DNA of 64,000 nt from positions 21,312-85,311 of the forward strand of contig DAOTYH010000069.1 of the NCBI GenBank assembly GCA_034435015.1, in the 5' to 3' direction. The stretch is from Anaerolineae bacterium. Its GTDB lineage: Bacteria; Chloroflexota; Anaerolineae; Aggregatilineales; UBA3940. Below the pieces are notes generated by a model that was not told the DNA's origin, did not search any database, and was given only the letters and a program-made list of their open reading frames with translations. Shown here one piece after another: positions 9,978-52,953 of the stretch (position 1 is its first letter; every line of letters begins with the position of its first letter). Position numbers and translations under genes: made by a program.

Positions 9978-11000
9978 ATGACCTACCGACATCAGTTTCT
10001 TGTGATCGCCTTGGTTCTCGCCGCCGCATTCTGTCTGTCTGCCTGCGGCGGCCCGGCGTCTGAACCTGCCGACACGGGGAATCGTGACCGCGTCGCTGTT
10101 CAGCTTTCGTGGGTTCACACAATCGAGTTTGCCGGATTCTACATGGCCGAGGAGAAGGGATATTACTCGGAGGAGAATCTGGCGGTTGAATTGCGTCCGG
10201 GCGGGCTGGATGCCGAAGGGAATGTCATCAACGCCATTGACGAGGTTGTTGCAGGCCGCGCCGAGTTTGGAGTGTTTGACGGCGCTTCGCTGACGATAGC
10301 ACGAAACGAAGGGATACCGGTGGTGGCCATCGCGGCCATTTATCAGCGTAGCCCGGTGGCCTTTGTGTCGCTGGCGGAGAAGGGGATTGTCTCACCGCAG
10401 GACCTGATCGGGGCCAACGCGGCGATTGACCTGGCCTCCAGCGGCCCCCTCTTTTTCACCCTTCTGGCCAACCAGCATATTGACCCTGCACGGGTTAACG
10501 TTGTGCAACGCACTGACTTCAGCATTGAGCCGCTCATCAGCGGCGAGACGGATGTGATTGACGGATGGCTCACTAATGAAGTGGTGGCGTTGGAGATGGC
10601 AGGATACGAGAGCAGTATCATCCTGCCTTCTGAGTATGGCCTGGACATGTACCCGAACCTCATTTTCACCACCACCGACATGATTGCCAACCATCCCGAT
10701 CTGGTGGAGCGCTTCCTGCGGGCCACACTACGGGGGATGCAGAGTGCCATTGAAGACCCTAATACGGCGGCGGCGCTGGTGTTGAATTACAACAGCGAAA
10801 GAACCCTTGAAGTGGAGACAGCGGCCATGCAGAGGTCTCTGCCCTTGCTTGCGCCGGCAGGAAGCCGGCCCGGTATGATGCGTGCCGATGTGTGGTATGT
10901 TACCTATCAGCTTTTGGCTGACCAAGGCCTCATTGACAGGACGCTGGACATCAATCAGGTCTATACGATGGAGTTTCTTAACAGGATTTATGGCGGGTAG
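9978..11000 (+). CDS. Lipoprotein, NMT1/THI5-like (NitT/TauT-family) ABC substrate-binding protein; orphan, with no cognate permease or ATPase nearby
   Basis: A lipobox-type signal peptide is present (LVLAAAFCLSACGG). VQLSWVHTIEFAGFYMAEEKGYY is typical of the NMT1/THI5-like SBP fold. The gene ends 21 nt before the giant kinase gene. Confidence 0.8.
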   Translation: MTYRHQFLVIALVLAAAFCLSACGGPASEPADTGNRDRVAVQLSWVHTIEFAGFYMAEEKGYYSEENLAVELRPGGLDAEGNVINAIDEVVAGRAEFGVFDGASLTIARNEGIPVVAIAAIYQRSPVAFVSLAEKGIVSPQDLIGANAAIDLASSGPLFFTLLANQHIDPARVNVVQRTDFSIEPLISGETDVIDGWLTNEVVALEMAGYESSIILPSEYGLDMYPNLIFTTTDMIANHPDLVERFLRATLRGMQSAIEDPNTAAALVLNYNSERTLEVETAAMQRSLPLLAPAGSRPGMMRADVWYVTYQLLADQGLIDRTLDINQVYTMEFLNRIYGG

Positions 11001-11021
11001 CTGTCCGCCGGGGGAGACGCT

Positions 11022-14000
11022 ATGAGTGTGACTGCGTCGTCAAACAAAGAGAGCCAGGTGGAACTGCCCTTACACCGGCAACTCCGCTGGAATCTGGTGT
11101 TTTACTTCGTTTTGCTGGCTGTATTGCCATTAGGGATAGTTGTTTCTATCCTGCTGGCGCGGACCAGCATACAGAGCAGGGAACAGGTCGTTAACCAGCT
11201 TGAGTCGGTGGCGGCACTCAAAAGCCAGCAGATCTCAAACTGGCTGTCTGATGCCGGGATGGCGATGGATACCATCCTAGCCGGACAGGGCCGCCAGAAC
11301 CTGTTTGCTGAGTTGGCCTTCGCTCCTGTAGTGGATCGCACCAAACAGGAGACAGCCAATGCTATTCTGGCGGAGGCTGTTCAGGCGAATGCCAACTTCG
11401 CTGAGCTGTTCCTGTACAACATACGCGGCGAAGTGATCGCTTCCTCTGACCCCAATCAGATCGGGAAGGTGGTCGCGCGTCAGCCGTTCTTCAGCGCCAG
11501 TCTGGCGGGAAATGTGGTTCAGCCGCCCTACTATGAACTGCGCACCGGCAACCTGACGCTGATCATTACCCGGCCTGTGCGGTCATCAAACGGCAGTATC
11601 ATTGGTGTGCTGGCAGGCAGGCTGAGTCTGGATATGCTGGCCAATCTCATGGCCGAGCGTACCGGCCTTGGCGAGACGGGTGAAACCTATCTGGTCAGCG
11701 CTGAGAGTAACTACCTGCTGACTCCCAGCCGCTCTGAGGGCTATCCGTTGACACGTGCCTATCACAGTGAAGGCATTGATGCGGCCCTGCGGGGCGAGAA
11801 CGGCGTCGGCCTCTACTATGATTACCGAGATCCGCCGGTGCAGGTACTGGGTGCTTATCGGTGGGTGCCGGAGCTTCAGGCCGCCCTGCTGGCTGAACAG
11901 GACCAGGCCGAGGCGCTGGCTGATGCGGTCCGGGCGCGCAACTTCAGCATTGGGTCGGCGATATTGGCGGCGATGGCGGCAGTAGCGGTCGGCTACCTGA
12001 CCGTCTCACGAGTCACCCAGCCTGTTACCGTTCTAACTCAGACAGCAACCCGCATTGCTGAAGGCGACCTGAGCGAGCGGGCGGAGGTCAAGGAAGAAAA
12101 CGAGATCGGTCTGCTGGCCTCTGCCTTCAACACGATGGCTGATCAGTTGCAGGATATGATCGGCTCGCTGGAACACCGCGTCGAAGCCCGCACGCGCGAC
12201 CTGCAGGTCGCGGCGGAGGTGTCACAACAGCTTACTTCCCTGCTTGATCTGGATCAGCTACTGCCCCAATTGGTTGAGCTGACGAAGAGCAGTTTCAGCC
12301 TCTACCATGCCCACGTCTATCTGCTGGACGAGGCACGCGAGTGGCTGATCATGACGGCTGGCGCGGGCGAAGCCGGGCGGATCATGAAGGAACACGGGCA
12401 CAAAATCCCTCTGAACGCTGAGCGCAGTCTGGTGGCCCGTGCGGCCCGTGAGCGTGAAGCCGTCATCATCAGCGACGTGCTTAAGGAGCCGGACTTCCTG
12501 CCCAACCCCCTCCTGCCGCAAACCCGTTCTGAGATGGCTGTGCCGATGGCTCGGGGCGAGGAAGTGATCGGCGTGCTGGACGTTCAGTCCGAACAGGTGG
12601 ACCGCTTCTCTAAAGATGAGATGCTGGTCATGACCACGCTGGCCGGTCAGGTGGCAGTGGCGGTGGAGAATGCCCGCGCCTTTGCTCAGCTTCAGAAGGC
12701 GCAGGAAGAAACGCAGGCCCTCCTGCTCGAGCTGGCCCAGCGGGATATGTTCTCCGTCGGTACATCTCGTATTGCTACCAGCCTCCTGAAAGGCGGTCTG
12801 AGCGAGCTTAAGAACGCGCTGGAGACACTGGGGCAGATCACAAGTGTCAGCCGGGTGTATATCTTTGAGAACTTCACCAACCCTGCCGGCGCGTTGTGTA
12901 TGCGCCAGACGCATGAGTGGGTAGCGGAGGGAATCACCCCCCAGATTGGCAATGAGGAATTGCAGTCCCTCCCCTATGATGCCTTGCCCCACCTGCGCGA
13001 TGCCCTAAGCCGGGGCGAGGTCTTTAAGGGGCTGGTGCGTGATCTGCCAGAGCCGGAACACGGATTGATGGCCGGGCAGGACATCCGCTCAATGGCGGTA
13101 CTGCCCATCTATATTGGAGAGGAATGGTACGGCTTCATCGGCCTGGATGACTGCGAGCAGGAACGCGAGTGGTCTCCGCTGGAGATCGAGCTGTTACAGA
13201 CAGTCAGCACCGCGATCTCCTATGCCATCTCCGGCGCCCGCCTGCTCAAGCGGACGCAGGATGCACTGGCACAGGTAGAGACCCTCTATGCCATGAGCCG
13301 GGCCTTCATTGGCGCACGGGGGCCGCAGGAACTGCTGGAGGCGTTTGTTGGGTTGAATGTGTCCTCCGGCGCTTACAACGCCTACCTGAACTACATCCAC
13401 TTTAATCAAGACGGCATGCCGGAGTGGTCTGAGGTGGCCGGCAATGTGACGAGGGTGCCGGTGGCAGTTGATCAGCCCATCGGCACCAAGCGGCGTATCA
13501 CCTCCGCCGCGGCCCAGCAGATCCTCTCCGGCGAGCGCGGGATCACGGTGATCGCCGACAGCGAGGCGGAAGGTGAGGCTGTCAATTCTCCGTTTGTCGA
13601 GATGCTCCGTGCCCTCAAGATGCGTTCGGCGGCGGTTATACCTCTTGTCCCGCCCGGCGGAAACCTGCTGGGAACGATTACCCTGACATGGCCGGAGCCG
13701 CATCAGGTAAGCGAGCAGGAGATACAGCTTTACGAGGTTGTAGCGCCTCAGATGGCGACCATACTCGAAAACCTGCGGCTGTATGAGGAGACGGAGGCGT
13801 CCCGTAAACGGTTCGAGGACGTGGCCCTCAGCTCGTCTGACTGGGTGTGGGAGACAGACGCAGAGGGGCGCTACACCTACTGCTCGGAGCGTGTGAGGGA
13901 TGTGCTGGGCTACGCGCCGGAGGAGGTGATCGGCAGAACCCCCTTTGATTTTATGATCCCAGGTGAGGCTGAGCGGGTGCTGAATCTGTTCCGTGATATC

Positions 14001-17000
14001 GCGGCCAACCGGCGGCGTATCGTTGACTTGGAAAACTGGAACTATCGCAAAGACGGCACGGAGGTCTGCATGCTGACCAGCGGCGTGCCGATTCTGGATG
14101 CCGGCGGCAACCTGCTCGGCTATCGCGGTGTTGACAAGGACATCACCCGCCAGAAGAACTTCGAGCGGCGGCAGAACCTCGCCTATGAACTGGGTCAGGA
14201 GCTGGCAACCCTGCTTGATCTCGACACGGTGCTTCAGCGGACGATAGCCCGTTTGAGCGAAGCGTTCGGTTACTACCATGCGCACATCTACCTGCTGGAC
14301 GAAGATGGCGCTTACCTGTCGGTCCGTGAGGGGCTGGGTGAGGCGGGCCGGGTGCTGAAGGAGCAGAAGCACCGCATCCCGCTCCATGCCGAGAAGAGCC
14401 TGGTGGCCCGTGCGGCCCGTTCGTTGAAGCCGGTGATTGTTAACGACGTGTCGCAAAACCCTGACTTCCTGCCTAACCCCCTGTTGCCGGAGACGCGCTC
14501 TGAGGTGGCCGTACCTCTGTTCGTAGGCCAGCAGTTGCTGGGGGTGCTGGACGTACAACAGAACAGCGTCAATGCCTTCGAAGAGGACGAACTTCGTATC
14601 CTGCTGATCATTGCTAACCAGCTTGCGGCCTCAGTTGCCAATGCCCGCCTGTTTGAGCAGACGCAGGAGGCCTTGGCTGAGACGCAGACGCTGTATCAGG
14701 CCAGCCAGAAGTTCATTCAGGCAGGCGGCCCTGAGGATGTTCTGAGGGCTCTGGCGGACATTGTGCCTTACCGCGACACGCTTGGCGTGCTGTTGTTCTA
14801 CTACGATGTGGACGAAGAGGGCCAGCCGATATGGGCGGAGCTGGCGGCACAGGTTCAGATCAGCGGCGAGCCTGCTATGAGTGTCGGCACGCGCTTCCCT
14901 GTTGCCGACCTGATGTTGACGCGCTGGCTGATCGAGGACCCCTACCGTCCGCAACACATTACCGACCTGCTGGATGCCAGCAATGAGGCTAGCGTAGAGA
15001 TTGCCCAAAGCGTACCGATAGGCGGAATTCGGTCTATTGTGGCTATTCCCCTGACCATTGGCCGCCGCCGTTTAGGCGCGGTTGCCCTGACATGGCAACA
15101 GCCGCGTGAGTTCGATGAGCGGGAGCTTCGTCTTTACGAAACGCTTGGCCCGCAGGCGGCGGCCCTGCTGGAGAGCCAGCGCCTGCTGATGGAGACCAAG
15201 ACTTCTGAGCAGTTGGTCCGCTCGGTGATTGATGCCAGCACCGACTGGATCTGGGCTAAAGACCGCAACTTCCGCTTCATTCTGGCCAACCGTATCATGG
15301 CTGATCAGCTTTACGGCCTAACGCCTGAGGAGATTGTCGGCAGGGATGACTACGATTTCGCCCCGAAGGAGCTGGTTGACGGCGACCCCTCACGTGGGAT
15401 TCGCGGCTTCCGTGTTGATGATGAGGCCGCTCTAAGGGGAGAGACAGTCCACAACCCCTATGATGTGGTACAGTTCAAAGATGGCTCTGAGCATATTCTG
15501 GACACGATCAAAGTGCCGCTGTACGACGCCGAGGGGAACATCATTGGCGTGCTGGGCGTGGGCCGTGACATCACCGAGCGCGAACGCACCCGCCGCCGTC
15601 AGCAGGCCGCTTATGAACTGGGCCAGCGGCTGGCCGCCCTGCTTGATCCTGAGGAACTGCTCAAGGAGACGGTCAACCGTCTGGCTGAGACCTTCGAGTA
15701 TTACCATGTGCATGTGTACTTGCTGGATGAAGAGGGGCAACGGTTAGTCGTCCGCGAGGGTCTGGGGCAGGTCGGCCAGATGCTGAAGGAGATGGGACAT
15801 GCCATCCCGCTGGATGCCGAGCGCAGTCTGGTGGCCCGCTCTGGCCGTACACTGGAGCCGGTCATCGTCAACGATGTGACTGAAGACCCCGATCACCTGC
15901 CCAACCCCCTCCTGCCGCTTACGCGCTCTGAGGTGGCTGTTCCGCTGATCGTCGGTTCACGGCTGGTGGGCGTGCTGGACGTCCAGCAGAAGGAAGCAGG
16001 GGCATTTGACGAGGATGAAATCCGGACCCTGTCCATCATTGCCAATCAGCTTGCAGTTGCCCTGGCCAACGCTCAACTGTTTGCTGAGAATGCCCAGCGC
16101 CTTGCCATCATAGAGAACTCTGCTAACGCAGTAGCGTTGGGTGATCTGAACGGCGGGTTTATCTATGGCAACCCAGTCCTGCGCGGGCTGTTGGGTGATA
16201 TACCAGCCGAAGAGGTGCGCCGTCATAAGTTTGCCGATCTGGTTGATCCGGAGACCCGGAGGTACGTAGCGGAAACCATCATGCCCCTTCTGCATGAACG
16301 GGGCAGATGGCACGGCGAGGCGACGCTGTACCGCAGTGACGGCTCTCCCTTCCCGGCTGAGGTAACGCTCTTCCTCATCCATGATGAGCAGGGACAGCCC
16401 CGCAACATCGCCGCCATCATCACGGACATCACTGAACGCAAGCAGGCTGAGGAGGCCCGGCGTCAGCAGGAGCAGTTGCTCCGCCTGATCATTGACACCA
16501 GCCCGGACTGGATTTTCGTTAAGGACCTCCAGTACCGCTACATGCTGGTCAACAAGGCCTTTGCTGAGTACTACGGCCAGCGTACCCCTGAGGAGATGGT
16601 GGGCAAGGATGACTACGATCTGGGCACACCGGCCTACCTGATCGAGGGTGACCCGGAGAAGGGCATACGCGGTTTCCGTACCGATGACCGGGCTGTGCTG
16701 GAGCAAGGGGAAACTATCTTCAACCCCTACGATGTGGTGAACTACGCTGACGGCACACTCCATGTGTTTGAAACTGAAAAGCTCCCCCTGCGGGATACAA
16801 CAGGGGAGGTGATCGGTGTGCTGGGGCTGGCCCGTGACGTAACCGAGCGTGAGGAGGCACGCCGCCGCCAGCAGGCCGCTTATGAGCTGGCCCGGCAGTT
16901 GACTACCCTGCTCGATGTGGATACCTTGCTCCGTGAGACACTGGTCCGCCTGAAAGAGACCTTCGGCTACTACCATGCTCACGTGTATCTGCTGGATAAG

Positions 17001-18185
17001 GAGTACGGCACCAAGCTGGTGGTGCGTGAGGGCCTTGGCGAGGCAGGGAAAATACTCAAGGAGATGGGGCATACCATCCCTGTAGATGCTGAACGTAGTC
17101 TGGTGGCCCGCGCGGCCCGTACACTGGAGCCGGTGGTGGTCAATGATGTGACCCAGAGTCCTGACCACCTGCCCAACCCCCTGTTGCCGGAGACGGCCTC
17201 TGAGGTGGCTGTGCCGCTGGTGCTGGGCGACAAGCTGTTGGGCGTGCTCGACGTGCAGGACAGCCGGGTGGGGCACTTTGACGAAGACGAGGTGCGTACA
17301 CTGCTCATCGTGGCCAACCAGCTCGCGGTGGCGCTGTCGAACGCGGCCCTGTACTTGGAGCAGTTGGAGACTGCCGAGCGGCTTCGTGAGCTGGATAAGC
17401 TCAAATCCGAGTTTCTGGCCAACATGAGCCATGAACTGCGTACCCCGCTCAACTCGATCATCGGCTACTCGGAGTTGTTGATTGACGACCTGGGCGACAC
17501 ATTGGATGAGATGTCGCTCGAAGACCTGAAGGCCATCCACTCCAGCGGCAATCACCTGCTGATGATCATCAATGACATCCTTGACCTGTCCAAGATTGCG
17601 GCGGGCCGCATGGAACTGAATAAGATGGCGGTAGACATCCCCGCCTTCCTGCCGCAGATAGCGGATATGTCGCGCGTGCTGTTGAAGGACAAGCCGGATG
17701 TCGAACTGCGGCTGGATATGCCGGATGCCCTGCCGGCGCTTCAGGCTGACCCGGTACGCCTGCGCCAGATCGTCTGGAATCTGCTCAGCAATGCCATCAA
17801 GTTCACCGATCATGGCTTTGTCCGGCTGTCGTGCTGGGCAGATAGCGATTGGATGTACATTGCTGTACAGGATACGGGCGTTGGCATTCCGCCGGAACAT
17901 CATGAGACAGTGTTCGATCAGTTCCGTCAGGTGGACGGCTCGGCAACCCGCAAAGCAGGCGGCACCGGGCTGGGCCTGACTATCTCGCGGCAGTTGGCGC
18001 GTCTGCATGGGGGCGACATCGAATTGGAGAGCGAGGTTGGCAAGGGAAGCCTGTTTACCCTCAAACTGCCTCTTGAGGGGGCTGTACAGCCGGCTGTAAC
18101 TCCCGCTGAGGAGTCAGCGGACGGAGCAGGCGGCAATGGCGCTAGGCGCGAGGCTGAGCGGGAAGCAAAGGTGACAGGCGACTGA
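11022..18185 (+). CDS. Giant multi-sensor histidine kinase: TM, Cache-like periplasmic domain, TM, HAMP, multiple GAF and PAS domains, HisKA, HATPase
   Basis: Two TM helices flank a periplasmic domain of about 260 aa. A HAMP domain follows (EGDLSERAEV...AFNTMADQL). Four near-identical GAF cores (YYHAHVYLLDE...SLVARAAR...PNPLLPETRSEVAVPL...GVLDVQ) and several PAS domains are present. The H-box is MSHELRTPLNSI. N/G boxes are NAIKFT and GTGLGLTIS. Confidence 0.95.
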   Translation: MSVTASSNKESQVELPLHRQLRWNLVFYFVLLAVLPLGIVVSILLARTSIQSREQVVNQLESVAALKSQQISNWLSDAGMAMDTILAGQGRQNLFAELAFAPVVDRTKQETANAILAEAVQANANFAELFLYNIRGEVIASSDPNQIGKVVARQPFFSASLAGNVVQPPYYELRTGNLTLIITRPVRSSNGSIIGVLAGRLSLDMLANLMAERTGLGETGETYLVSAESNYLLTPSRSEGYPLTRAYHSEGIDAALRGENGVGLYYDYRDPPVQVLGAYRWVPELQAALLAEQDQAEALADAVRARNFSIGSAILAAMAAVAVGYLTVSRVTQPVTVLTQTATRIAEGDLSERAEVKEENEIGLLASAFNTMADQLQDMIGSLEHRVEARTRDLQVAAEVSQQLTSLLDLDQLLPQLVELTKSSFSLYHAHVYLLDEAREWLIMTAGAGEAGRIMKEHGHKIPLNAERSLVARAAREREAVIISDVLKEPDFLPNPLLPQTRSEMAVPMARGEEVIGVLDVQSEQVDRFSKDEMLVMTTLAGQVAVAVENARAFAQLQKAQEETQALLLELAQRDMFSVGTSRIATSLLKGGLSELKNALETLGQITSVSRVYIFENFTNPAGALCMRQTHEWVAEGITPQIGNEELQSLPYDALPHLRDALSRGEVFKGLVRDLPEPEHGLMAGQDIRSMAVLPIYIGEEWYGFIGLDDCEQEREWSPLEIELLQTVSTAISYAISGARLLKRTQDALAQVETLYAMSRAFIGARGPQELLEAFVGLNVSSGAYNAYLNYIHFNQDGMPEWSEVAGNVTRVPVAVDQPIGTKRRITSAAAQQILSGERGITVIADSEAEGEAVNSPFVEMLRALKMRSAAVIPLVPPGGNLLGTITLTWPEPHQVSEQEIQLYEVVAPQMATILENLRLYEETEASRKRFEDVALSSSDWVWETDAEGRYTYCSERVRDVLGYAPEEVIGRTPFDFMIPGEAERVLNLFRDIAANRRRIVDLENWNYRKDGTEVCMLTSGVPILDAGGNLLGYRGVDKDITRQKNFERRQNLAYELGQELATLLDLDTVLQRTIARLSEAFGYYHAHIYLLDEDGAYLSVREGLGEAGRVLKEQKHRIPLHAEKSLVARAARSLKPVIVNDVSQNPDFLPNPLLPETRSEVAVPLFVGQQLLGVLDVQQNSVNAFEEDELRILLIIANQLAASVANARLFEQTQEALAETQTLYQASQKFIQAGGPEDVLRALADIVPYRDTLGVLLFYYDVDEEGQPIWAELAAQVQISGEPAMSVGTRFPVADLMLTRWLIEDPYRPQHITDLLDASNEASVEIAQSVPIGGIRSIVAIPLTIGRRRLGAVALTWQQPREFDERELRLYETLGPQAAALLESQRLLMETKTSEQLVRSVIDASTDWIWAKDRNFRFILANRIMADQLYGLTPEEIVGRDDYDFAPKELVDGDPSRGIRGFRVDDEAALRGETVHNPYDVVQFKDGSEHILDTIKVPLYDAEGNIIGVLGVGRDITERERTRRRQQAAYELGQRLAALLDPEELLKETVNRLAETFEYYHVHVYLLDEEGQRLVVREGLGQVGQMLKEMGHAIPLDAERSLVARSGRTLEPVIVNDVTEDPDHLPNPLLPLTRSEVAVPLIVGSRLVGVLDVQQKEAGAFDEDEIRTLSIIANQLAVALANAQLFAENAQRLAIIENSANAVALGDLNGGFIYGNPVLRGLLGDIPAEEVRRHKFADLVDPETRRYVAETIMPLLHERGRWHGEATLYRSDGSPFPAEVTLFLIHDEQGQPRNIAAIITDITERKQAEEARRQQEQLLRLIIDTSPDWIFVKDLQYRYMLVNKAFAEYYGQRTPEEMVGKDDYDLGTPAYLIEGDPEKGIRGFRTDDRAVLEQGETIFNPYDVVNYADGTLHVFETEKLPLRDTTGEVIGVLGLARDVTEREEARRRQQAAYELARQLTTLLDVDTLLRETLVRLKETFGYYHAHVYLLDKEYGTKLVVREGLGEAGKILKEMGHTIPVDAERSLVARAARTLEPVVVNDVTQSPDHLPNPLLPETASEVAVPLVLGDKLLGVLDVQDSRVGHFDEDEVRTLLIVANQLAVALSNAALYLEQLETAERLRELDKLKSEFLANMSHELRTPLNSIIGYSELLIDDLGDTLDEMSLEDLKAIHSSGNHLLMIINDILDLSKIAAGRMELNKMAVDIPAFLPQIADMSRVLLKDKPDVELRLDMPDALPALQADPVRLRQIVWNLLSNAIKFTDHGFVRLSCWADSDWMYIAVQDTGVGIPPEHHETVFDQFRQVDGSATRKAGGTGLGLTISRQLARLHGGDIELESEVGKGSLFTLKLPLEGAVQPAVTPAEESADGAGGNGARREAEREAKVTGD
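12205..17362 (+). repeat. Intragenic duplicated sensor modules inside the giant kinase
   Basis: GAF cores lie at about 12205-12690, 14173-14660, 15600-16088 and 16870-17362. Variant GAF-like modules lie at about 13255-13790 and 14665-15190. PAS-GAF units lie at about 15235-16088 and 16495-17362. Nucleotide strings recur, for example CTGGTGGCCCG(T/C)GCGGCCCGT at about 12431, 14401 and 17101. Confidence 0.8.
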
Positions 18186-18192
18186 GAATTCA

Positions 18193-18217
18193 GGGGGCGG
18201 GGATGCACCCTGCCCCC
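18193..18217 (+). other. GC-rich intercistronic hairpin between the kinase and the ThrC-like gene
   Basis: GGGGGCGGGG-ATGCA-CCCTGCCCCC forms a 10-bp stem with one G-U pair. No T-tract follows, so it is not a classical terminator. Confidence 0.4.
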
Positions 18218-18237
18218 GGCTAACTATCAAGGCGGAC

Positions 18238-20316
18238 ATGGCAAAACTATCACCCTACTTTACCGGCGTGGCCTGTCAGCAGTGCGGTCATACCATGCCT
18301 CCCTCCCTCACACGGGCTAAGTGTGAACGGTGCGGCTCGCCATGGTTGGAGGCTCAGTATGATTATCAGGCGGTTGCGGCCCTCTGGCCGGATGCGCTGG
18401 CCGGGCGCGGCAAGACCATGTGGCGCTATCAGGAGCTGTTGCCTGTCGTGCCGGAGGCGCGGATCAGCATGGATGAGGGCTGGACGCCCTTATTGAAGGC
18501 CAAGGAATTGGGGCATCAGCTTGAGCATAGCCGGCTGTACATCAAAGATGAGCGCCAGTCGCCGACCAGTTCTTTCAAGGATCGGCAGGCGGCCCTGACC
18601 ATCTCAGCGTTGAAGGCGGCCCGTATTAAAGAATGCGTGATCGCCTCGACCGGCAACGCCTCGACAGCCTATGCGGCCTACTGCGCCCGTGCCGGAATCA
18701 AATTGTGGGTGTTTGTGACCAGCCTTGTGCCGGCAGAGAAGATGCGCGAGGCGGCCTTGTACGGCGCTGAGGTGATCAAGATCACCGGCACCTATGACCA
18801 GACAAAGGCCATTGCCGCCGACTTTGCCAAACGGCGCGGCCTGTACTTCGATACGGGGGCGAAGGGCATAGTCGGCAAAGAGAGTATGAAGACCATTGCC
18901 TTCGAGATCGTCGAGCAGTTGGGCTGGCGTGCCCCTGACTGGTATATCCAGTCCGTCAGCGGGGGGATCGGGCCGATTGGCGTCTGGAAGGGGTTTGTAG
19001 AACTCAAGCGCATGGGCCTGATCAAGAAACTGCCCCGTCTGGCGATCATCCAGTCGGAGGGATGCGATCCGATGGCACGCGCCTTCGAGGCTGACCGCGA
19101 GACTGCTGAGCCGGTGACGCCCCGCACGGCCATCACGATCCTCTCGACCGGTGACCCGGGTTTTGCCTATACCTTGCTGTATCGGGCGGCTAAGAGCAAC
19201 GGCGGTGTGATTACCTCCGTACCGGACCGGGATGCCTTCCGCGCCCTGCGCAGGCTGGCCCGTGCGGAGGGGATGTCGGTTGAGCCGGCAACCGGCGTGG
19301 CCTTTGCCGGTCTAGAGGCACTGCTGACCGAGAATGTGATCAAGCCCCGCCATACGGTGGTGGTCAATGCCTCCGGCCACACTTTGCCGGTCGAGAAGTT
19401 CGTGATCGAAGATCAGGCCATCGTTGATATTGATGTCAACAGCAAGCTGGCCGAGCAGTGGGGGATGCGGGAGGAAGGCCTCAGTGCGGCGCTGGAGCAT
19501 CTGGATGAGAAGATCACCCGTGTGGTGGTCATTGATGACAGCCCGCATGACAGCCGCCTGATCCGCCGACTGCTTCAACGGCATCGCTCGTATCGTGTGT
19601 TTGAAGCCAATGAGGGCAAAACAGGCCTTGAGCTGGTACGCGAGCGCCGCCCTGACCTGATCATTTTGGATTTGATGATGCCGGATATGGACGGCTTTGA
19701 TGTGCTGAGTGCCCTCAAGGCCGACCCCCAGACGGCACGTATCCCTGTCATTGTGGTTTCCGGCAAGACCTTGACCACTCAAGAGCGTGAACGGTTACAG
19801 GATCAAACCGTCTCGGTGTGGCTCAAGGGGAGCTACTCGACCCACGATCTGGTCGATCACATTGTGCGTCAACTGGGTGAGCCGGGCGTCTCGGCGGCGG
19901 TCACGCCGGATGCAAGCGGCACTCCCGAAGGCAAACGCCGGCCTGCGGTGCTGGTCATTGATGACAGCCCGCTGGATGCCCGGCTGGTGCGTCGTACACT
20001 GGAATCACGCGGCATGTACCGTGTGCTTGAGGCCCGCTCAGGCGAGCAGGCTCTGGCAATGATTGAGGCAGACACTCCCGACCTGATAATCCTTGACCTG
20101 ATGTTACCCGGCATGGACGGCTTCCAGATACTCGAACGCCTGCGCTCCAATCCAGCCGCCCGTGATCTGCCGGTTGTTGTCCTGAGTGCTAAGGAGTTGA
20201 CACCTGAGGAACAGGCCCGCCTTGCCAAGGGGCGGGTGGAGTCTACGTGGGCGAAGGGCGCAACGGATCGTGCGGCGTTACAGGAACATATTGTGAAGGT
20301 AATTGAGGAAGTATAG
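18238..20316 (+). CDS. Threonine-synthase-like PLP-dependent enzyme (N-terminal zinc ribbon) fused to two C-terminal response-regulator receiver domains
   Basis: CQQCGH...CERCG is a zinc ribbon. TSSFKDRQA contains the PLP-lysine motif, and ASTGNAS and SGGIGPIG also fit a ThrC-type fold. Two REC domains follow (VVVIDDSPHD...DLIILDLMMPDMDG...VVSGK and VLVIDDSPLD...DLIILDLMLPGMDG...VLSAK). Confidence 0.85.
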   Translation: MAKLSPYFTGVACQQCGHTMPPSLTRAKCERCGSPWLEAQYDYQAVAALWPDALAGRGKTMWRYQELLPVVPEARISMDEGWTPLLKAKELGHQLEHSRLYIKDERQSPTSSFKDRQAALTISALKAARIKECVIASTGNASTAYAAYCARAGIKLWVFVTSLVPAEKMREAALYGAEVIKITGTYDQTKAIAADFAKRRGLYFDTGAKGIVGKESMKTIAFEIVEQLGWRAPDWYIQSVSGGIGPIGVWKGFVELKRMGLIKKLPRLAIIQSEGCDPMARAFEADRETAEPVTPRTAITILSTGDPGFAYTLLYRAAKSNGGVITSVPDRDAFRALRRLARAEGMSVEPATGVAFAGLEALLTENVIKPRHTVVVNASGHTLPVEKFVIEDQAIVDIDVNSKLAEQWGMREEGLSAALEHLDEKITRVVVIDDSPHDSRLIRRLLQRHRSYRVFEANEGKTGLELVRERRPDLIILDLMMPDMDGFDVLSALKADPQTARIPVIVVSGKTLTTQERERLQDQTVSVWLKGSYSTHDLVDHIVRQLGEPGVSAAVTPDASGTPEGKRRPAVLVIDDSPLDARLVRRTLESRGMYRVLEARSGEQALAMIEADTPDLIILDLMLPGMDGFQILERLRSNPAARDLPVVVLSAKELTPEEQARLAKGRVESTWAKGATDRAALQEHIVKVIEEV

Positions 20317-20341
20317 CAGGCAGTCGTGAGTGAGGAAGCCT

Positions 20342-20860
20342 ATGGCTAGGATATTGGTTATTGAGGATGATCCCCATAGCGCAGACATCGTGGCCCGGGT
20401 ACTCAGGCGGCGGGGACATGAGGTTCTGCACGCCAGTGAAGGGCTGACAGGTTTGAAGATCGCCTCGCAGGAGCAAATTGATTTGGTACTGCTCGATCTG
20501 GGCCTGCCGGACATCGGGGGGCATACCATCGCCGCGCTGATCAACCGCATCCCCGGCAATATCCCGGTGGTTGCAGTGACGGCCAGTACCGACATGGCCA
20601 CCCAGAAGCGCGCCATGTCGTATGGGTGTGACGGCTACATCACTAAGCCGATTGATACCCGCGCTTTTCCCGATCAGGTTGCCCAGTTCATTCGTAGTCG
20701 AGAGAACGGTTCTCCCTCTGAAGGGCAGGACAGCCTGCCGGCGGAGTCTGTTCAGGAAAGCGAGAGTCAGCAGAAGCCCGCAGGGGCCAGCACGGAAGGC
20801 GAAGAGAAGGCGGCAACGCAAGCCAGTCCCAATGGTCAGGGCAAGGCAATTATTTACTGA
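20342..20860 (+). CDS. Single-domain response regulator (receiver) with an acidic/Ser-rich C-terminal tail
   Basis: MARILVIEDD...DLVLLDLGLPDIGG...VTAS...ITKP. GAGG lies 6 nt upstream of the ATG at 20342; the track start at 20330 is a GTG. Confidence 0.85.
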   Translation: MARILVIEDDPHSADIVARVLRRRGHEVLHASEGLTGLKIASQEQIDLVLLDLGLPDIGGHTIAALINRIPGNIPVVAVTASTDMATQKRAMSYGCDGYITKPIDTRAFPDQVAQFIRSRENGSPSEGQDSLPAESVQESESQQKPAGASTEGEEKAATQASPNGQGKAIIY

Positions 20861-20915
20861 TTATTTACTGAGATGAGAAAGCAGCCTTCCAGACCTTCCG
20901 CTAACTGGAGAAAGG

Positions 20916-21335
20916 GTGATGAGCAGAATCTTGTACGTGGAAGATAACTTCCAGAATTATCGGCTGGTGATGCGCATGCTTGCGGCGGAGAAAGATCAGG
21001 CGTATGAGATCTGTCAGGCGCCGGATGGCGAAAGCGCCCTCCGCATGGTAGGGGAATTTCAGCCCGACCTGATCCTGATGGACATTAACCTGCCCGACAT
21101 AGACGGGATGGAGGTCACCCGCCGCATCAAGGCCGATGAGCGGCTGAGCCGTATTCCCATTATTGCGCTGACTGCCAATGCCATGGTCGGTGACCGGGAG
21201 CGGTATATGGCCGGCGGGTGCGACGGCTACCTGCGCAAGCCGTTCAGCCGGTCCGAGTTGCGCGAGGTGCTGGATCAATTCCTGCATCACAACGGGGATG
21301 CGGCCAGAGTGCTCAAGGAGAGCAATCAGGCGTGA
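20916..21335 (+). CDS. Single-domain response regulator (CheY-like receiver)
   Basis: RILYVEDN...DLILMDINLPDIDG...ALTANAM...GCDGYLRKP. Confidence 0.9.
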   Translation: MMSRILYVEDNFQNYRLVMRMLAAEKDQAYEICQAPDGESALRMVGEFQPDLILMDINLPDIDGMEVTRRIKADERLSRIPIIALTANAMVGDRERYMAGGCDGYLRKPFSRSELREVLDQFLHHNGDAARVLKESNQA

Positions 21336-21380
21336 TCCCTGTTGCCTTGCCATCCTTTACCAATGGGGGAGAGACAGCTC

Positions 21381-21782
21381 ATGCCGTCCGATGAGGAAAC
21401 CGGCAGAACGTACACCATCTTGCTGATCGAAGATAACCCAAACAACGCCCGTCTGATGTGCCGCGTGCTGGAGCGCCATAACTTCACGGTGCTTCATGCT
21501 GAGGACGGAGAAACAGGCCTGCAGATGGCTTTTGCCCACCGGCCTGATCTGATTCTGCTTGATCTGGGCCTGCCCGATGTAGATGGCCAGAGTGTGGCAG
21601 GGATGCTCAAACAGCCCGATTCCCTGCCCGATACTCCCCTGGTTGTTGTCACGGCATGGCCCGCTGAGACAGCCCGCGCGATGGTCGAGGCTTATGGATG
21701 TGAGGGGTACATCCCCAAGCCGATTGACACGCGCGAGTTCCCCTTGCAGGTTGCCGGCTATCTCAACCGCCCTAAGCCCTAA
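21381..21782 (+). CDS. Single-domain response regulator (receiver)
   Basis: YTILLIEDNP...DLILLDLGLPDVDG...VVTAW...IPKP. The start is uncertain: TTG 21342, ATG 21363 or ATG 21381. The last has an upstream GGGGGAGAG. Confidence 0.8.
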   Translation: MPSDEETGRTYTILLIEDNPNNARLMCRVLERHNFTVLHAEDGETGLQMAFAHRPDLILLDLGLPDVDGQSVAGMLKQPDSLPDTPLVVVTAWPAETARAMVEAYGCEGYIPKPIDTREFPLQVAGYLNRPKP

Positions 21783-21809
21783 GCGGTTTCAGCAGGGAAG
21801 GGGCGCGAC

Positions 21810-22658
21810 GTGAATCTGGTCCCGGCCAGCCGGTACACTATTCAACAATTAACTGAAGCCTATAATCAGACACGGGTGGATTATCTGGTCCCTATGCCTA
21901 TGAGCGCCCACCGTCTGATGGAGTATATTCAGGTCTATGATGTCTCGCTGGATGACTCGGTCGTGGCGGAAGAAGGGGGTGAGATACTGGGCTTGTGTAT
22001 GCTGGGAGTGCGCGGCGCATGGGGCTGGGCTACGCGGCTGGGAGTCCTGCCAACCTGCCGCCGTCACGGGGCGGGGCAGGCTCTGATGGAGTATGTCATC
22101 CAACGGGCTGTTGAACGGGGATGTCAGGTCGTCTATCTGGAAGTGATCGTCGGCAACGTGCCGGCTTATAGGCTGTTCACCAAGCTGGGCTTCCGCGATG
22201 TGCGTGAACTGCTGGTCCTGCGCCGCCCCCCCGGCCTGCCGCATGCCTCTAGTCCGCCGCCTGCCATGTTGACATGGCTTGACCCTTCCCAGACACTGCT
22301 CCGTGCGGCGGCCCGCGACTGGCGGCCTGCGTGGACCAATCAGACCGAGTCGCTGGCCAACGCCCGGACGGTCGGAGCCTTGCATCTGATTGATCAGGCT
22401 ACTCAGGCCAGCGGGTGGATCAGCTACCAGACCTCGCCGCTTCAACTCCGCCGTGTGCTGATCGCTCCTGACCCGGGCCACGAGGCCGCGCCGGCCTACA
22501 GCCTGCTCTATCATCTGCACAGCCGCTTCCCTTTGCTGGACACAGTAGCGGAGAATGTGCCTGCCGACTCCCCTCATCTGCCTGACTATAAACGGCATGG
22601 CTACGTTGAGTCGTTCCGGCGGCTGGAAATGGAACTGCCGCTCGGCCCGCCCCCCTGA
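21810..22658 (+). CDS. GNAT-family N-acetyltransferase-like protein
   Basis: VLPTCRRHGAGQALMEYVIQRAVERG...YLEVIVGNVPAYRLFTKLGFR is GNAT motif A/B. The start is a GTG. Confidence 0.7.
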   Translation: MNLVPASRYTIQQLTEAYNQTRVDYLVPMPMSAHRLMEYIQVYDVSLDDSVVAEEGGEILGLCMLGVRGAWGWATRLGVLPTCRRHGAGQALMEYVIQRAVERGCQVVYLEVIVGNVPAYRLFTKLGFRDVRELLVLRRPPGLPHASSPPPAMLTWLDPSQTLLRAAARDWRPAWTNQTESLANARTVGALHLIDQATQASGWISYQTSPLQLRRVLIAPDPGHEAAPAYSLLYHLHSRFPLLDTVAENVPADSPHLPDYKRHGYVESFRRLEMELPLGPPP

Positions 22659-22710
22659 TGGAGAAACGGATAAAAAAACAGGGGCGCGCACGCCCCTGTT
22701 GCATGTCCTG

Positions 22711-23880
22711 TTATGACCTCTCAGGCGGGTGGTGCGAGTTCAGCGGCAGATGGATCGAAAAGATACTCCCTTTGCCTAGTTCGCTTTGTACGCTGATGTC
22801 GCCGCCGTGCAGTCGTATCAGGCCGCGGGCGATGGTCAGACCCAGTCCGGCACCCTGCTGTTCCATCTTCTGACGGTCAACCTGATGGAAGCGGTCAAAA
22901 ATCTGCTCAAATTGTGATGGGTCGATCCCAATTCCCTGATCGTGCACGCGGATGACAGCCTGATCGCCTTGTGTGAACGCATCAACCAGGACGTAACCCG
23001 GCTCGCCCCGTTTGGAGAACTTAATGGCATTGTCCACCAGCCGCAAGAGCGCCTCTGCTAGGTAGTTGGACATACACCAGACCGTTAGGTCTTCAGATAC
23101 GCGGTTTTCAAGCGTGACGTCCCGCTCTTCGGCGGCCTGTTTGAGTTTGCCGAAAACTTCCCACACAATCGGGCGGACTTGTGCAGGTCCCTGCCGGACT
23201 TCGATCTCCATCTTAAGCATGCCGCTGTCCAAGCGGACAACCAGCATCAAGTCCTCGATCAGCCGGACCAGCCGCTCGGCCCCGCGCTGAACGCCGTCGA
23301 GCATCTCTTTCAATGACTGCTCGTCCAGCTCGTGATGCTGTTCTTGGAGCAGATTGACATACCCATAGATGTAAGACAGAGGGGTGCGCAGTTCGTGGCC
23401 GAAGATGGTGATCAACTGCTGTTTCATGCGCTCGACATCAGCCTGAGTGGCAGACTGAATCTCATGGACCCGCTTGAGCCGTGCCTGAATGGCAACCAGC
23501 AGGTCCTCCGGCTCGAAAGGCTTGGTCACGTAGGCATCAGCACCCAGCCTGATCCCCCGCCGAACGTCAGACTGCTGGCCAAGCGCCGATAGAAAGATAA
23601 ACGGGATGGCCGCCCATTCCTGCCTCTGGCGCACCGCCTCAAAGAACTCGTATCCGTTCATGTCGGGCATCATGATATCGGCTACCACCAGATCAGGAAG
23701 GCAGGTCTCCATCACGTCGAGAGCTTGATGCCCGTTGAGGGCTGTGATGACGTTGTATCCATAGAGCCGCAGGAGGTCAGATGTGCCGTCCAGAATGGCA
23801 TCATCATCATCAACCAGCAGGATGGTAGTTGGCCGTCCCCCTTCTTCTCTGGCTGAGACCAGTTCAGGGTTAATGTTCAC
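22711..23880 (-). CDS. Hybrid response regulator-histidine kinase (REC, HisKA, HATPase)
   Basis: TILLVDDDD...DLVVADIMMPDMNG is the receiver. The H-box is GHELRTPLSYI. HATPase motifs are DNAIKFS and GAGLGLTIA. Confidence 0.9.
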   Translation of the reverse strand: MNINPELVSAREEGGRPTTILLVDDDDAILDGTSDLLRLYGYNVITALNGHQALDVMETCLPDLVVADIMMPDMNGYEFFEAVRQRQEWAAIPFIFLSALGQQSDVRRGIRLGADAYVTKPFEPEDLLVAIQARLKRVHEIQSATQADVERMKQQLITIFGHELRTPLSYIYGYVNLLQEQHHELDEQSLKEMLDGVQRGAERLVRLIEDLMLVVRLDSGMLKMEIEVRQGPAQVRPIVWEVFGKLKQAAEERDVTLENRVSEDLTVWCMSNYLAEALLRLVDNAIKFSKRGEPGYVLVDAFTQGDQAVIRVHDQGIGIDPSQFEQIFDRFHQVDRQKMEQQGAGLGLTIARGLIRLHGGDISVQSELGKGSIFSIHLPLNSHHPPERS

Positions 23881-25757: not shown

Positions 25758-26906
25758 TTATTCCATCGGGGCGGCAGGGAGCCAGAAGACGAAGCGCGTT
25801 CCGACTCCGCCCTCTCCCTCCTCCGCCCAGATTTTCCCGCCATGTGCGTTGATGGCTGAGCGGCAGTAGGCCAGCCCCAGCCCAAATCCGCGACTGCCCT
25901 GACGCCGCGCCTCTACCTGCGCAAAGCGGTCGAAGACATGCTCGCGATACTCAGGCCGGATGCCCGGCCCATTGTCGTTGACGGCCACAAAGACCGCTTC
26001 ACCGTCTGACCATGCGCTGACGGTGACCTGCCCGCCAAGGGGTGTGTATTTGAGGGCGTTGTCAATCAGGTTGGTCAGTACGCGGTCTATGCGCTGACGG
26101 TCAGCCCGGACGGCTGGCAATGGCCCGGCAGGAGGGTTGAACCCCAGGTTAATTCGGGAGGCCCATGCCATCGGCTTGAGCCGCTCGACTATCTCGCTCA
26201 GCAGGGCCAGCACGTCTAAGCTCTCCAGCTCCAGCTCGGCCTCGCCCCCTTCCAGCCGTTCGACATCCAGCAGAGCTTCGACTAATGTCTGCATCCGTTG
26301 TGCGCCGCCGGAGGCCATTGCCAGGAAGCGGGTCGTCTCTTCCTGCAACTGGAGGGAGGGGTCCAGCTCCAGCATAGCGAGCGCCATCGAGATCAGTGTC
26401 AGGGGGTTACGCAGATCGTGGATGATGAATCCCACTGTTTCCTGCCGCAACTGCATAATCTGGGCTAACCGCTCAGCCTCAGACGAGAGGGATGCCAGCC
26501 GCTCGAACAGTTCGTGTTCTGCCGCCGCGGCACGGACGCGGCTTTGGTCGGCGGCCAGCAGGCGGTCAATGAGGGCCTGCAAGACCATCCGCCGGAAGGC
26601 GGCATCCCCCTCAAACAGACGCCAGAAATCATCGTGGTTAATGGCCAACAGGGTAGTCGGTTTAAGAGCCAGCACGGAGGCTGAGCGGGGGCTGTCGCCG
26701 AGCAGGCTGACCTCACCGATCAGGTCGCCTTCTGAGCGGTAGCCCAGTACCAGCGGCGCATCCGTATCTGCCCCTTTGATCACGGCGACCTGCCCCTTTT
26801 CGATCATATACATCGTGTCGCCGGGGTCGTTCTCTCGAAACACATACTCCCCTGCCTGATAGTGCTTGGGGGTGGCGTAGTCAGCCCAGCGTGGGTTTTC
26901 GGCCAT
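25758..26906 (-). CDS. Cyclic-nucleotide-binding domain fused to a histidine kinase
   Basis: The N-terminal cNMP-binding fold shows FRENDPGD...GDLIGEVSLL...RSASV. This is followed by IIHDLRNPLT (H-box) and HATPase motifs DNALKYT and GFGLGLAYC. Confidence 0.9.
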   Translation of the reverse strand: MAENPRWADYATPKHYQAGEYVFRENDPGDTMYMIEKGQVAVIKGADTDAPLVLGYRSEGDLIGEVSLLGDSPRSASVLALKPTTLLAINHDDFWRLFEGDAAFRRMVLQALIDRLLAADQSRVRAAAAEHELFERLASLSSEAERLAQIMQLRQETVGFIIHDLRNPLTLISMALAMLELDPSLQLQEETTRFLAMASGGAQRMQTLVEALLDVERLEGGEAELELESLDVLALLSEIVERLKPMAWASRINLGFNPPAGPLPAVRADRQRIDRVLTNLIDNALKYTPLGGQVTVSAWSDGEAVFVAVNDNGPGIRPEYREHVFDRFAQVEARRQGSRGFGLGLAYCRSAINAHGGKIWAEEGEGGVGTRFVFWLPAAPME

Positions 26907-27010: not shown

Positions 27011-27529
27011 TTGGCAGGGAGCGGTGAGGTGGGAGTAGAGGGGCATTCCATTCCGTGTCTTGGCGGCAGGCAGAGGGAGCTGATCAGCGGGCGGGAGCCT
27101 GAGCTGAGCGGCCTGCGGCAGAGCACTGATCCGCTCATTGTGCTGGTGGATGATGAGCCGACCCTGACCGAATTAATCAAGCTCATTTTTAGCCTTGCCG
27201 GCTACAATGGCCTGGTGAGCTTCCCCTGTGGGGAAGGCGTGCTGGATTACTGCCGGGCTAACCGTCCCACTCTGCTGATCACGGACATCTGTCACCCCGG
27301 CCCGAACGGGCTGGAGTTGTGCCGCATGATCCGTGAGGACCCGATGCTGGCTGATATGCCTGTGATTGTGTGTTCGGCCACCCCCAGCCAGTTCCTCGGC
27401 CCGCTGGAAGAACAAAAGATCGCCTACTTTCCCAAGCCGTGCAATCTGAGAGAGCTTGTCGAGTACATCGAAGGAACAGTCGGTCTAAACATGAAGCGGC
27501 TCTCTGCTCTGCTGTCTAAGGGAGGGTGA
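27011..27529 (+). CDS. Receiver-domain protein (orphan response regulator); start uncertain
   Basis: LIVLVDDEPT...TLLITDICHPGPNG...VIVCSA...FPKP. Only non-ATG start candidates are available (TTG 27011, or a GTG near 27140). Confidence 0.6.
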   Translation: MAGSGEVGVEGHSIPCLGGRQRELISGREPELSGLRQSTDPLIVLVDDEPTLTELIKLIFSLAGYNGLVSFPCGEGVLDYCRANRPTLLITDICHPGPNGLELCRMIREDPMLADMPVIVCSATPSQFLGPLEEQKIAYFPKPCNLRELVEYIEGTVGLNMKRLSALLSKGG

Positions 27530-52947: not shown

Positions 52948-52953
52948 CCCCTC

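Follow-up and report, generated by a model that had tools for sequence, protein, structure and literature searches.

A Chloroflexota two-component gene cluster with a threonine synthase-like domain fused to tandem receivers as a candidate metabolic output

Background

We describe a cluster of seven co-directional genes at positions 9978-22658 on the plus strand of a 64,000-nucleotide stretch (hereafter the window) of contig DAOTYH010000069.1 from an Anaerolineae bacterium (GenBank assembly GCA_034435015.1). In order, the genes encode a secreted binding protein, a giant membrane sensor histidine kinase, a protein combining a threonine synthase (ThrC)-like pyridoxal phosphate (PLP) domain with two receiver (REC) domains (hereafter the PLP-REC-REC or fusion protein), three stand-alone receivers (REC_A, REC_B and REC_C) and an acetyltransferase of the GNAT superfamily. 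As judged by gene order and orthology, the cluster is a real conserved operon and signalling module found in hundreds of Chloroflexota species. We consider it probable that it constitutes a lineage-specific, branched two-component operon lacking a DNA-binding output, with the kinase, the PLP-REC-REC protein and REC_B as its core, and that it would act by switching enzymes.

The best-understood outputs of two-component systems are almost all transcription factors, second-messenger enzymes or chemotaxis proteins. A PLP enzyme under receiver control, if the proposal holds true, would add the direct control of amino-acid chemistry to these outputs. Both the output domain and the operon architecture are new and widespread in one phylum, and a full-text literature search found no description of a fusion of a ThrC-like or PLP domain to receivers.

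A conserved gene order in Chloroflexota

Pattern scanning of a single genome from each GTDB species, which yields a lower bound, revealed relatives of the PLP-REC-REC protein encoded in at least 596 species genomes, and more than 120 full-length cluster representatives of the protein show identities of 52-68%. From GTDB we fetched 80 loci from genomes other than that of the window, the top match being 61% identical, and 87 loci were mapped by phmmer searches with the window's own domains as queries. All taxonomically labelled loci among the 80 belong to Chloroflexota, with named representatives from the Anaerolineales, Caldilineaceae, Aggregatilineales, Ardenticatenales and Thermoflexales. The carriers are mostly uncultured Anaerolineae-type bacteria of sediments, sludge and hot springs; the cultured Aggregatilinea lenta also carries the core module.

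In the phmmer map, 62 of 76 loci have the kinase gene ahead of the fusion gene and co-directional with it, the two being immediately adjacent in 56 of these; a stand-alone receiver gene immediately follows the fusion gene in 71 of 79 loci, and a GNAT homologue is part of the co-directional chain in 32 of 69. The median gaps across loci are 58 nucleotides between kinase and fusion genes, 20 between fusion and receiver genes, and 11 between receiver and GNAT genes. Five loci (L004-L008), whose fusion proteins are 56-67% identical, reproduce the order seen in the window, namely kinase, fusion, three receivers, GNAT and then a convergent gene for a second kinase, REC-HK (see below). A preliminary description of this DNA had treated the seven genes as one signalling cluster and proposed conservation of gene order as its test: the order of the second to seventh genes indeed recurs across dozens of genomes at protein identities of 47-67%, showing a conserved module rather than a chance arrangement. 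Taken together, synteny and orthology show the core to consist of the modular multi-sensor kinase, the PLP-REC-REC response regulator and REC_B; by synteny, the couplet of REC_C and tandem GNAT, REC_A, REC-HK and an exchangeable orphan binding protein are shown as its accessories.

The open reading frames (ORFs) and domains of all seven genes in the window are likewise as initially described. No gap between them exceeds 60 nucleotides, the values in gene order being 21, 52, 13 or 25, 55, 6 to 45, and 27; the ranges reflect alternative starts for REC_A (GTG at 20330) and REC_C (21342 and 21363). Shine-Dalgarno motifs favour the ATG at 20342 for REC_A (GAGGAAG) and the ATG at 21381 for REC_C.

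The PLP-REC-REC protein

The fusion protein (18238..20316, plus strand; 692 residues) contains a Pfam PALP domain (E 2.8e-66) and two REC domains. Its layout comprises an N-terminal four-cysteine ribbon (residues 1-45), the PLP domain (46-383, with Lys114), a conserved linker (384-425), REC1 (426-546, with Asp478) and REC2 (568-692, with Asp620). A model generated with AlphaFold2 (AF2) has a mean predicted local distance difference test (pLDDT) score of 83.8 and is confident inside each domain; the best PDB matches recovered for it by Foldseek are class II threonine synthases, with TM scores of about 0.8. At the sequence level the closest characterized matches are the ThrC proteins of T. thermophilus, A. 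aeolicus, M. tuberculosis and B. subtilis (E 1e-36 to 1e-42; 29-33% identity). The Schiff-base lysine of this fold-type II PLP domain, K114, lies in the invariant motif PT.SFKDRQ. An alignment of the family further reveals that this lysine, the STGN loop, the glycine loop binding the PLP phosphate and the four-cysteine ribbon are all invariant or conserved. Conservation is highest in the PLP domain, whose mean pairwise identity is 67% as against 60% for REC1 and 41% for REC2, and the linker joining it to REC1 is itself conserved at 56% identity. Residues 411-425 of this linker bear an invariant motif, EGL..AL..LDE, and yet are modelled with pLDDT below 50; this segment may be a docking or dimerisation helix.

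An exhaustive HMMER search recovered the fusion proteins as a discrete clade together with a few stand-alone members that lack receivers (such as P0246, P0248 and P0251), the next relatives being ordinary zinc-ribbon ThrC-like proteins of about 410 residues with 35-40% identity. We compared the clade with canonical threonine synthases. Canonical or ThrC-like genes also lie close to certain fusion genes: A. lenta has a separate canonical thrC 8 kb from its fusion gene, which scores 259.7 bits with TIGR00260 and has all the canonical residues; the orthologous ORF of L011, from another Aggregatilinea genome, has the same canonical motifs, and L013 and L031 possess additional stand-alone ThrC-like ORFs in the neighbourhood of their fusion genes. 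The motifs STGNT, NS.NP.R.EG.KT and GN.GN are kept in the T. thermophilus and A. lenta ThrC proteins and in the L011 ORF, whereas the fusion clade instead displays STGNA, G[AT]K...G[KR]ESMKT and VSGG[IL]GP, with GNAGN having become SGGIGP. The positions concerned include T88, N154, S155, R160 and N188 of the T. thermophilus enzyme, which are reported to contact the substrate phosphate in its complex with an analogue (Omi et al. 2003; structure 1V7C). The fusion clade has Ala in place of T88, a variable residue (Thr in the window) at N154, Gly at S155, Gly followed by Lys at R160 and Gly at N188. Because of these differences in the substrate-site residues we place the domain outside the strict threonine synthase equivalog.

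Variation in the architecture of the clade was also encountered. P0011 (844 residues) and P0061 (845 residues) are homologues with three receivers, the extra receiver of the former resembling a copy of REC2. A variant with one receiver is followed by REC_B and then by a second, different ThrC-like sequence (L080 4151-5312, L083 11974-13188 and L086 11974-13194). This second sequence is a single gene of about 405 codons in L083 and L086, where it bears the motifs FKARG, TAGNAGG, YRLEGKK and TGGGTG, and is represented by two adjacent ThrC-matching ORFs in L080.

The above features allow different interpretations of what the PLP domain does. It could be an input rather than an output, binding an amino acid or a related metabolite through PLP and gating the phosphate of the receivers as a relay valve, with the GNAT and the targets of REC_A, REC_B and REC_C as the outputs. 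The GabR/MocR regulators offer a parallel in that their aminotransferase-like domain binds an amino acid through PLP. The order of an N-terminal domain followed by C-terminal receivers is typical of proteins in which an input precedes a receiver. The loss of the canonical substrate-phosphate residues and the unusual conservation of the linker with its invariant motif would also fit such a role, as would the hint of nitrogen or amino-acid sensing offered by a divergently transcribed glutamine synthetase gene in five related loci (see below). On the other hand, the invariance of the catalytic lysine, the STGN loop and the glycine loop, in the domain that is the most constrained of the protein, is enzyme-like, even if such PLP-dependent sensors also keep the lysine. 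Moreover, the existence of receiver-less clade members suggests that an autonomous enzymatic function came first. We therefore regard an input role as unlikely.

Less plausible still is the interpretation implied by the public annotation, in which the fusion protein is labelled 'threonine synthase' or 'pyridoxal-phosphate dependent enzyme', namely that it is the organism's own threonine synthase with regulatory receivers that tune threonine biosynthesis. The domain does pass the TIGR00260 thrC model, narrowly (170.3 bits against a cut-off of 167.1), and its closest structures and characterized homologues are the bacterial threonine synthases mentioned above. No other thrC is present within the 64 kb of the window, and the plant threonine synthase is known to be allosterically regulated (PMC9081730). 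Its score with PRK08197 is, however, 284.9 bits, under the cut-off of 303; the five presumed phosphate-contact positions are replaced or, in the case of R160, shifted; and canonical or ThrC-like genes coexist with the fusion gene in the four loci named above. Furthermore, members of the clade are sharply set apart from stand-alone ThrC-like proteins (60% or less identity within the clade versus about 35-40%). These observations render a housekeeping role quite improbable. Cysteate synthase was considered as another candidate identity and rejected (TIGR03844: 125.2 bits against a cut-off of 324.9).

Thus, as far as these comparisons go, the PLP domain is a diverged paralogue of threonine synthase and not the housekeeping enzyme, and its substrate is probably other than O-phosphohomoserine. 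It is expected to run an elimination or replacement reaction on a different amino acid. Of the earlier proposal of a ThrC-like PLP enzyme as an output, the relationship to ThrC is upheld; threonine synthesis is not the likely output of a paralogue with such altered motifs. The public label 'threonine synthase' probably misleads metabolic reconstructions.

The receivers

REC_A (20342..20860, plus strand; Pfam Response_reg, E 4e-24), REC_B (20916..21335, plus strand) and REC_C (21381..21782, plus strand), the latter two also recognized by Pfam, are encoded downstream of the fusion gene. Read from the translations, all five receivers of the cluster fit the phospho-acceptor pattern D-L-[IV]-[IL]-[LM]-D-[LI]-x-[LM]-P, as had been noted at the outset, and the N-terminal acidic pair, the Ser/Thr and the Lys are also intact in all five as well as in the receiver of REC-HK. 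Across 26 homologues of the fusion protein, no substitution occurs at D433, D434, D478 and K530 in REC1 or at D620 and K673 in REC2, and S508 is present in at least 90%. Both REC1 and REC2 have W-x-K-G where K-P is common. Pfam detects no helix-turn-helix domain among the five receivers, in agreement with the absence of a DNA-binding output that had been claimed for them.

Classification by best hits across loci resolves the small receivers into three orthologous groups that occur in the fixed order A-B-C, while their number varies from one to three between loci. REC_A, which has a low-complexity C-terminal tail, is the least widespread, with orthologues in 11 loci, and is always first. REC_B is of the hybrid-kinase type, its best NCBIfam matches being the receiver regions of BarA, ArcB and TorS. 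It is a near-universal partner of the fusion protein: among the 75 loci with any co-directional gene after that of the fusion protein, 64 have one of REC_B type, and in P0061 it is naturally fused to the C-terminus of a PLP-REC-REC protein (56% identity). REC_C is tied to the acetyltransferase, being the type found in 36 of the 37 loci in which a single-domain receiver precedes the GNAT gene, and the junction between the two genes shows many overlaps of 4 or 8 nucleotides across loci. Since the receivers are distinct orthologous groups with specific partners, the suggestion that they represent several phosphate sinks does not fit. The related scenario in which they are redundant sinks that buffer the kinase, with the GNAT an unrelated passenger, is very improbable: while receiver number does vary between loci and single-domain receivers do act as sinks in some systems, it sits poorly with the fixed order of three groups, the fusion of REC_B to the PLP protein, the REC_C-GNAT couplet with its frequent stop/start overlaps, and the co-occurrence with the cluster of a dedicated full-length GNAT family.

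The sensor kinase and the convergent REC-HK

The kinase (11022..18185, plus strand; 2387 residues; Pfam HisKA E 1.3e-20 and HATPase_c E 1.8e-31) begins with a transmembrane segment, a dCache_1 domain (53-286), a second transmembrane segment and a HAMP domain (328-378). These are followed by seven GAF domains (409-549, 596-736, approximately 780-916, 1066-1204, approximately 1250-1384, 1542-1683 and 1965-2107) interspersed with four PAS domains (937-1045, 1404-1522, 1693-1805 and 1825-1945), and by the catalytic core of HisKA (2128-2195) and HATPase_c (2243-2352). The H-box SHELRTPL and the N and G boxes NAIKFT, DTGVGI and GGTGLGL are those of a histidine kinase. As earlier stated, it has neither a receiver nor an HPt domain of its own, none being found in the Pfam scan. 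Kinase cores encoded beside the fusion gene are orthologous to it, with a median score of 249 bits; the paralogous kinases of the window reach 107-141 bits, and the remaining kinases within the loci a median of 94 bits. The sensor regions of these orthologues range from about 750 to about 3000 residues, with one to about ten GAF or PAS modules. Within the window's kinase, GAF1, GAF4, GAF6 and GAF7 are mutually 50-73% identical, and PAS2 and PAS4 55% identical (residues 409-2107), a pattern indicating that the sensor region grew by internal duplication.

Many loci contain an extra gene of about 500-650 codons whose product matches the dCache-HAMP and GAF regions of the kinase and has no detected kinase core. 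It lies beside the binding-protein gene and upstream of the kinase, as in L014 (4013-5818), L020 (3974-5779), L032 (3144-4931), L033 (4593-6089), L056 (4192-6114) and L085 (1798-3735). This gene may encode a second, kinase-less sensor.

Convergent with the cluster is the gene for REC-HK (22711..23880, minus strand; 389 residues), for which Pfam recognizes a REC-HisKA-HATPase_c architecture, with the acceptor Asp, the H-box and the N and G boxes all intact. L004-L008 have an orthologue of it in the corresponding place (441 bits with the L006 copy). Additionally, a gene encoding a REC domain lies co-directionally between the kinase and fusion genes in L044, L054, L060, L065, L073, L076 and possibly L050, five of these seven matching REC-HK. 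By these criteria REC-HK belongs to the module as a conserved accessory, and contributes a sixth receiver and a second kinase that the preliminary description had overlooked. Beyond REC-HK, four of the related loci encode a PAS-GAF protein of about 296 residues and a receiver of 135 residues (L004 11312-12660, L006 16192-17543, L007 16938-18311 and L008 16121-17419); at that place the window has YkuD and HAD genes in lieu of this pair.

An exchangeable binding-protein slot

The first gene of the cluster (9978..11000, plus strand) codes for an NMT1/THI5-like binding protein of 340 residues (Pfam NMT1, E 4e-49) with a lipoprotein signal ending in LSAC. An identification as SsuA was rejected (26.6 bits against a cut-off of 163.5). 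It is an orphan, as previously noted: adjacent permease and ATPase genes are absent, no importer-type ABC genes lie nearby, and such ABC genes as the window does have, 10-17 kb away, all belong to the FtsX/MacB and ABC-2 types. The NMT1 protein cannot be counted as a conserved member of the module, given that the phmmer map places close homologues upstream of the kinase in just 3 of 76 loci, and that it is absent from the close relatives L006 and L007, both of which have a complete upstream end.

We examined the ORFs directly upstream of the sensor genes with Pfam, and nine of the first ten encode binding proteins: four of the ABC_sub_bind family, two Peripla_BP_6, two NMT1 and one Phosphonate-bd. 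Two Aggregatilinea loci (A. lenta, L001, and L011) have Peripla_BP_4/1 proteins in this position. Overall, a binding-protein gene, sometimes two in tandem, is located directly upstream of the sensor gene or genes in 15 of the 39 loci with a resolvable upstream end, and five unrelated families share the position (NMT1, ABC_sub_bind, Peripla_BP_6, Peripla_BP_4/1 and Phosphonate-bd). The flanks that were checked contain neither permease nor ATPase genes. Judging from this distribution, the position is an exchangeable slot subject to non-orthologous displacement. The proposal that the binding protein is a co-sensor of the kinase gains support from the combination of five families in the slot with no adjacent transporter gene, even as the NMT1 protein itself proves not to be conserved. 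Kinases activated by binding proteins encoded beside them have precedent (PMC11113362).

In five loci a divergent minus-strand ORF of 452-476 codons is situated just upstream of the cluster of sensor, binding-protein, kinase and fusion genes (L001 1741-3099, L011 1707-3065, L014 1238-2626, L020 1196-2584 and L032 3-1430). Its product was confirmed as a glutamine synthetase in L001, L014 and L032 and is predicted as such from size and position in L011 and L020. This neighbour is a possible pointer to a connection with nitrogen or amino-acid status. The window's own glutamine synthetase gene (54042-55373, minus strand) is about 32 kb from the cluster.

The tandem-GNAT acetyltransferase

The last gene (21810..22658, plus strand) encodes a protein of 282 residues, of which Pfam Acetyltransf_1 covers residues 49-128 only (E 1.7e-18). 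Its C-terminal half forms a second GNAT fold, the acetyl-CoA motif RRHGAGQAL being confined to the N-terminal half. R84, G89 and the RRxGxG motif are conserved, and the family alignment is conserved over its full length. The AF2 model has a pLDDT of 92.5, with 2WPX, 7Q3A, VipF and MshD as the best PDB matches (top E 1.8e-14). On the strength of the alignment and model, it represents a dedicated full-length family with a predicted tandem-GNAT fold. One public label calls it RimI, an identification that we reject (TIGR01575: 48.7 bits against a cut-off of 86.4), the protein having 282 residues and two GNAT folds where RimI is a single GNAT of about 150 residues.

Transcription signals and surrounding genes

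The preliminary description had held that terminators separating the genes would speak against a single operon; our scan found no terminator-like site in the intergenic gaps, which is weak evidence, given that sites in the promoter and terminator scans are no commoner than in shuffled sequence (5 against a mean of 4.9, and 8 against 10.4). The sole notable site in these scans is a G+C-rich hairpin with a 10-bp stem at 22677..22700, in the 52-nucleotide gap between the convergent GNAT and REC-HK genes; it is followed by a T-run on the minus strand, and an A-run precedes it on the plus strand. It is a match to the consensus and no more, and probably marks the end of both transcription units. Because the binding protein has the NMT1/THI5 fold, a thiamine pyrophosphate element was sought; Rfam models run over the entire window gave no riboswitch in the vicinity of the cluster, the single match at the gathering threshold being a selenocysteine tRNA gene at 42 kb (42048-42140, plus strand; tRNA-Sec, 73.4 bits).

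The window is otherwise rich in signalling genes, with further examples at 25758-26906 (minus strand), 30007-32147 (plus strand) and 40046-41398 (minus strand); these include a cNMP-binding histidine kinase, a REC-PAS-HisKA_3 kinase with a NarL-type regulator, and a GAF kinase. An 804-residue protein combining a PP2C phosphatase domain with an FGE-sulfatase-type domain is encoded at 643-3057 (plus strand), and a second FGE-sulfatase-domain gene, at 51052-53964 (plus strand), directly follows that of a PAS histidine kinase. An ORF of 777 codons at 27516-29849 (minus strand) has no Pfam match at E 1e-4 or better.

A proposed mechanism

Fusion of a receiver to an enzyme leads to the expectation that phosphorylation controls catalysis without transcription, and a metabolic rather than transcriptional output, as first proposed for this cluster, is plausible. 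We envisage that the binding protein would pass an external ligand signal to the dCache domain of the kinase, while the arrays of GAF and PAS domains would integrate cytoplasmic signals. The kinase would then autophosphorylate and distribute phosphoryl groups among the receivers. Upon phosphorylation, the C-terminal REC-REC pair could switch the PLP domain allosterically, in the manner of the C-terminal ACT-like or CBS domains of other fold-type II enzymes, which are known to be regulated via their oligomeric state and appended regulatory domains (PMC9081730). In the other branch, phosphorylated REC_C might control the tandem GNAT or might itself be a substrate of the GNAT. REC_B and REC-HK could shuttle or drain phosphate between the branches, as in the RedCDEF system of Myxococcus xanthus. 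The cluster is not a hybrid-kinase phosphorelay, because the kinase lacks REC and HPt domains, no HPt was seen in the neighbourhoods, and REC_B stands alone.

Several observations weigh against this proposal. A directly upstream kinase is missing in 14 of 76 loci. In one group of these, L002, L003, L009 and L010 (which include 'Thermofonsia Clade 1'), a convergent NarL-type regulator gene lies beside the fusion gene, with a GerE domain seen in L002 and L003, where a HisKA_3 kinase gene is next; the wiring therefore varies. The Hpt family is not among the called genes of five related neighbourhoods, so that a relay through REC_B would proceed without a known intermediate. Adjacency of binding-protein and kinase genes need not mean that their products interact (PMC11113362). 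In the AF2 model of the fusion protein the interdomain arrangement is not confident (predicted template modelling score, pTM, 0.59; linkers with pLDDT below 50), and hence the allosteric coupling is inferred; with the same pTM and disordered linkers, a docking of the domains from this model was discarded as unusable. As for the distinction from ThrC, the thrC model is passed, however narrowly. A basic residue (K214 or Arg) is also kept one position before a conserved Glu, one on from R160, so the substrate might yet bear a phosphate or another anion.

A bolder version of the proposal, which we offer as tentative and somewhat doubtful, would have this module of the Chloroflexota steer metabolism purely post-translationally. 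In it the kinase would act on a ThrC-derived PLP enzyme of new specificity via the tandem receivers and, in parallel, on the tandem GNAT via a dedicated receiver, this receiver and the acetyltransferase together forming a split regulator. The fusion protein would then be the first response regulator with a PLP output, and the module could possibly make and N-acetylate a non-canonical amino acid in response to the ligands of the binding protein. Irrespective of this, the A-B-C order, the REC_C-GNAT couplet and the exchangeable slot provide concrete wiring hypotheses, and the culture of A. lenta opens an experimental route to them.

Comparison with known systems

The closest conceptual parallels of the PLP-REC-REC protein are response regulators in which a receiver is fused to an enzyme and which are encoded beside their cognate kinase, such as CheB (REC-methylesterase), PleD and WspR (REC-GGDEF), RpfG (REC-HD-GYP) and the REC-PP2C proteins. 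It differs from these in that the enzyme is a fold-type II PLP enzyme rather than one of chemotaxis or nucleotide second-messenger metabolism, and in that the usual order is reversed, with the enzyme at the N-terminus and two receivers at the C-terminus. Compared with the class II threonine synthases of known structure (1UIM/1V7C, T. thermophilus; 2ZSJ, A. aeolicus; 2D1F, M. tuberculosis; 6CGQ, B. subtilis), it shares the fold and the motifs PTxSFKDR and STGN, but is distinguished by the four-cysteine ribbon, the REC-REC pair, the altered substrate-site motifs and the coexistence of a canonical thrC. In this regard it recalls cysteate synthase: the PLP domain looks like a ThrC paralogue with a new function, while not being cysteate synthase itself. 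The threonine deaminase IlvA, cystathionine beta-synthase and the plant threonine synthase likewise combine an N-terminal PLP core with a C-terminal regulatory module (PMC9081730); in the fusion protein this module is a REC pair, and its input would be a kinase signal instead of a small-molecule effector.

At the level of the whole system, the RedCDEF 'four-component' system of M. xanthus offers a close comparison. There, a dual-receiver protein transfers phosphate to a second kinase-like protein, and the latter in turn dephosphorylates a single-domain receiver (PMC2755868). The sensor kinase, dual receiver, single-domain receiver and second kinase-type protein of that system, with no DNA-binding output (PMC2755868), all have counterparts here, though we claim generic domain homology only. 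The Chloroflexota module differs in having a PLP enzyme on the dual receiver, extra receivers and a GNAT. Further, RedE is apparently unable to autophosphorylate (PMC2755868), whereas REC-HK has its own receiver and intact ATP-binding boxes.

The pairing of a transporter-less gene for a secreted binding protein with one for a kinase having an extracytoplasmic sensor is also seen in LuxP-LuxQ and TorT-TorS (PMC11113362). The present case, as seen in the genomes, is set apart by the swapping of five binding-protein families against an orthologous kinase core, and by a dCache domain as the putative partner. Finally, the combination of two GNAT folds with one recognisable acetyl-CoA motif is shared with 2WPX (the clavulanate-pathway protein CBG), 7Q3A (MAB_4324), VipF and MshD. 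The identity to these is 13-18%, and the Chloroflexota family differs from them in having the half with the motif at the N-terminus and in that its gene is always preceded by that of a dedicated receiver.

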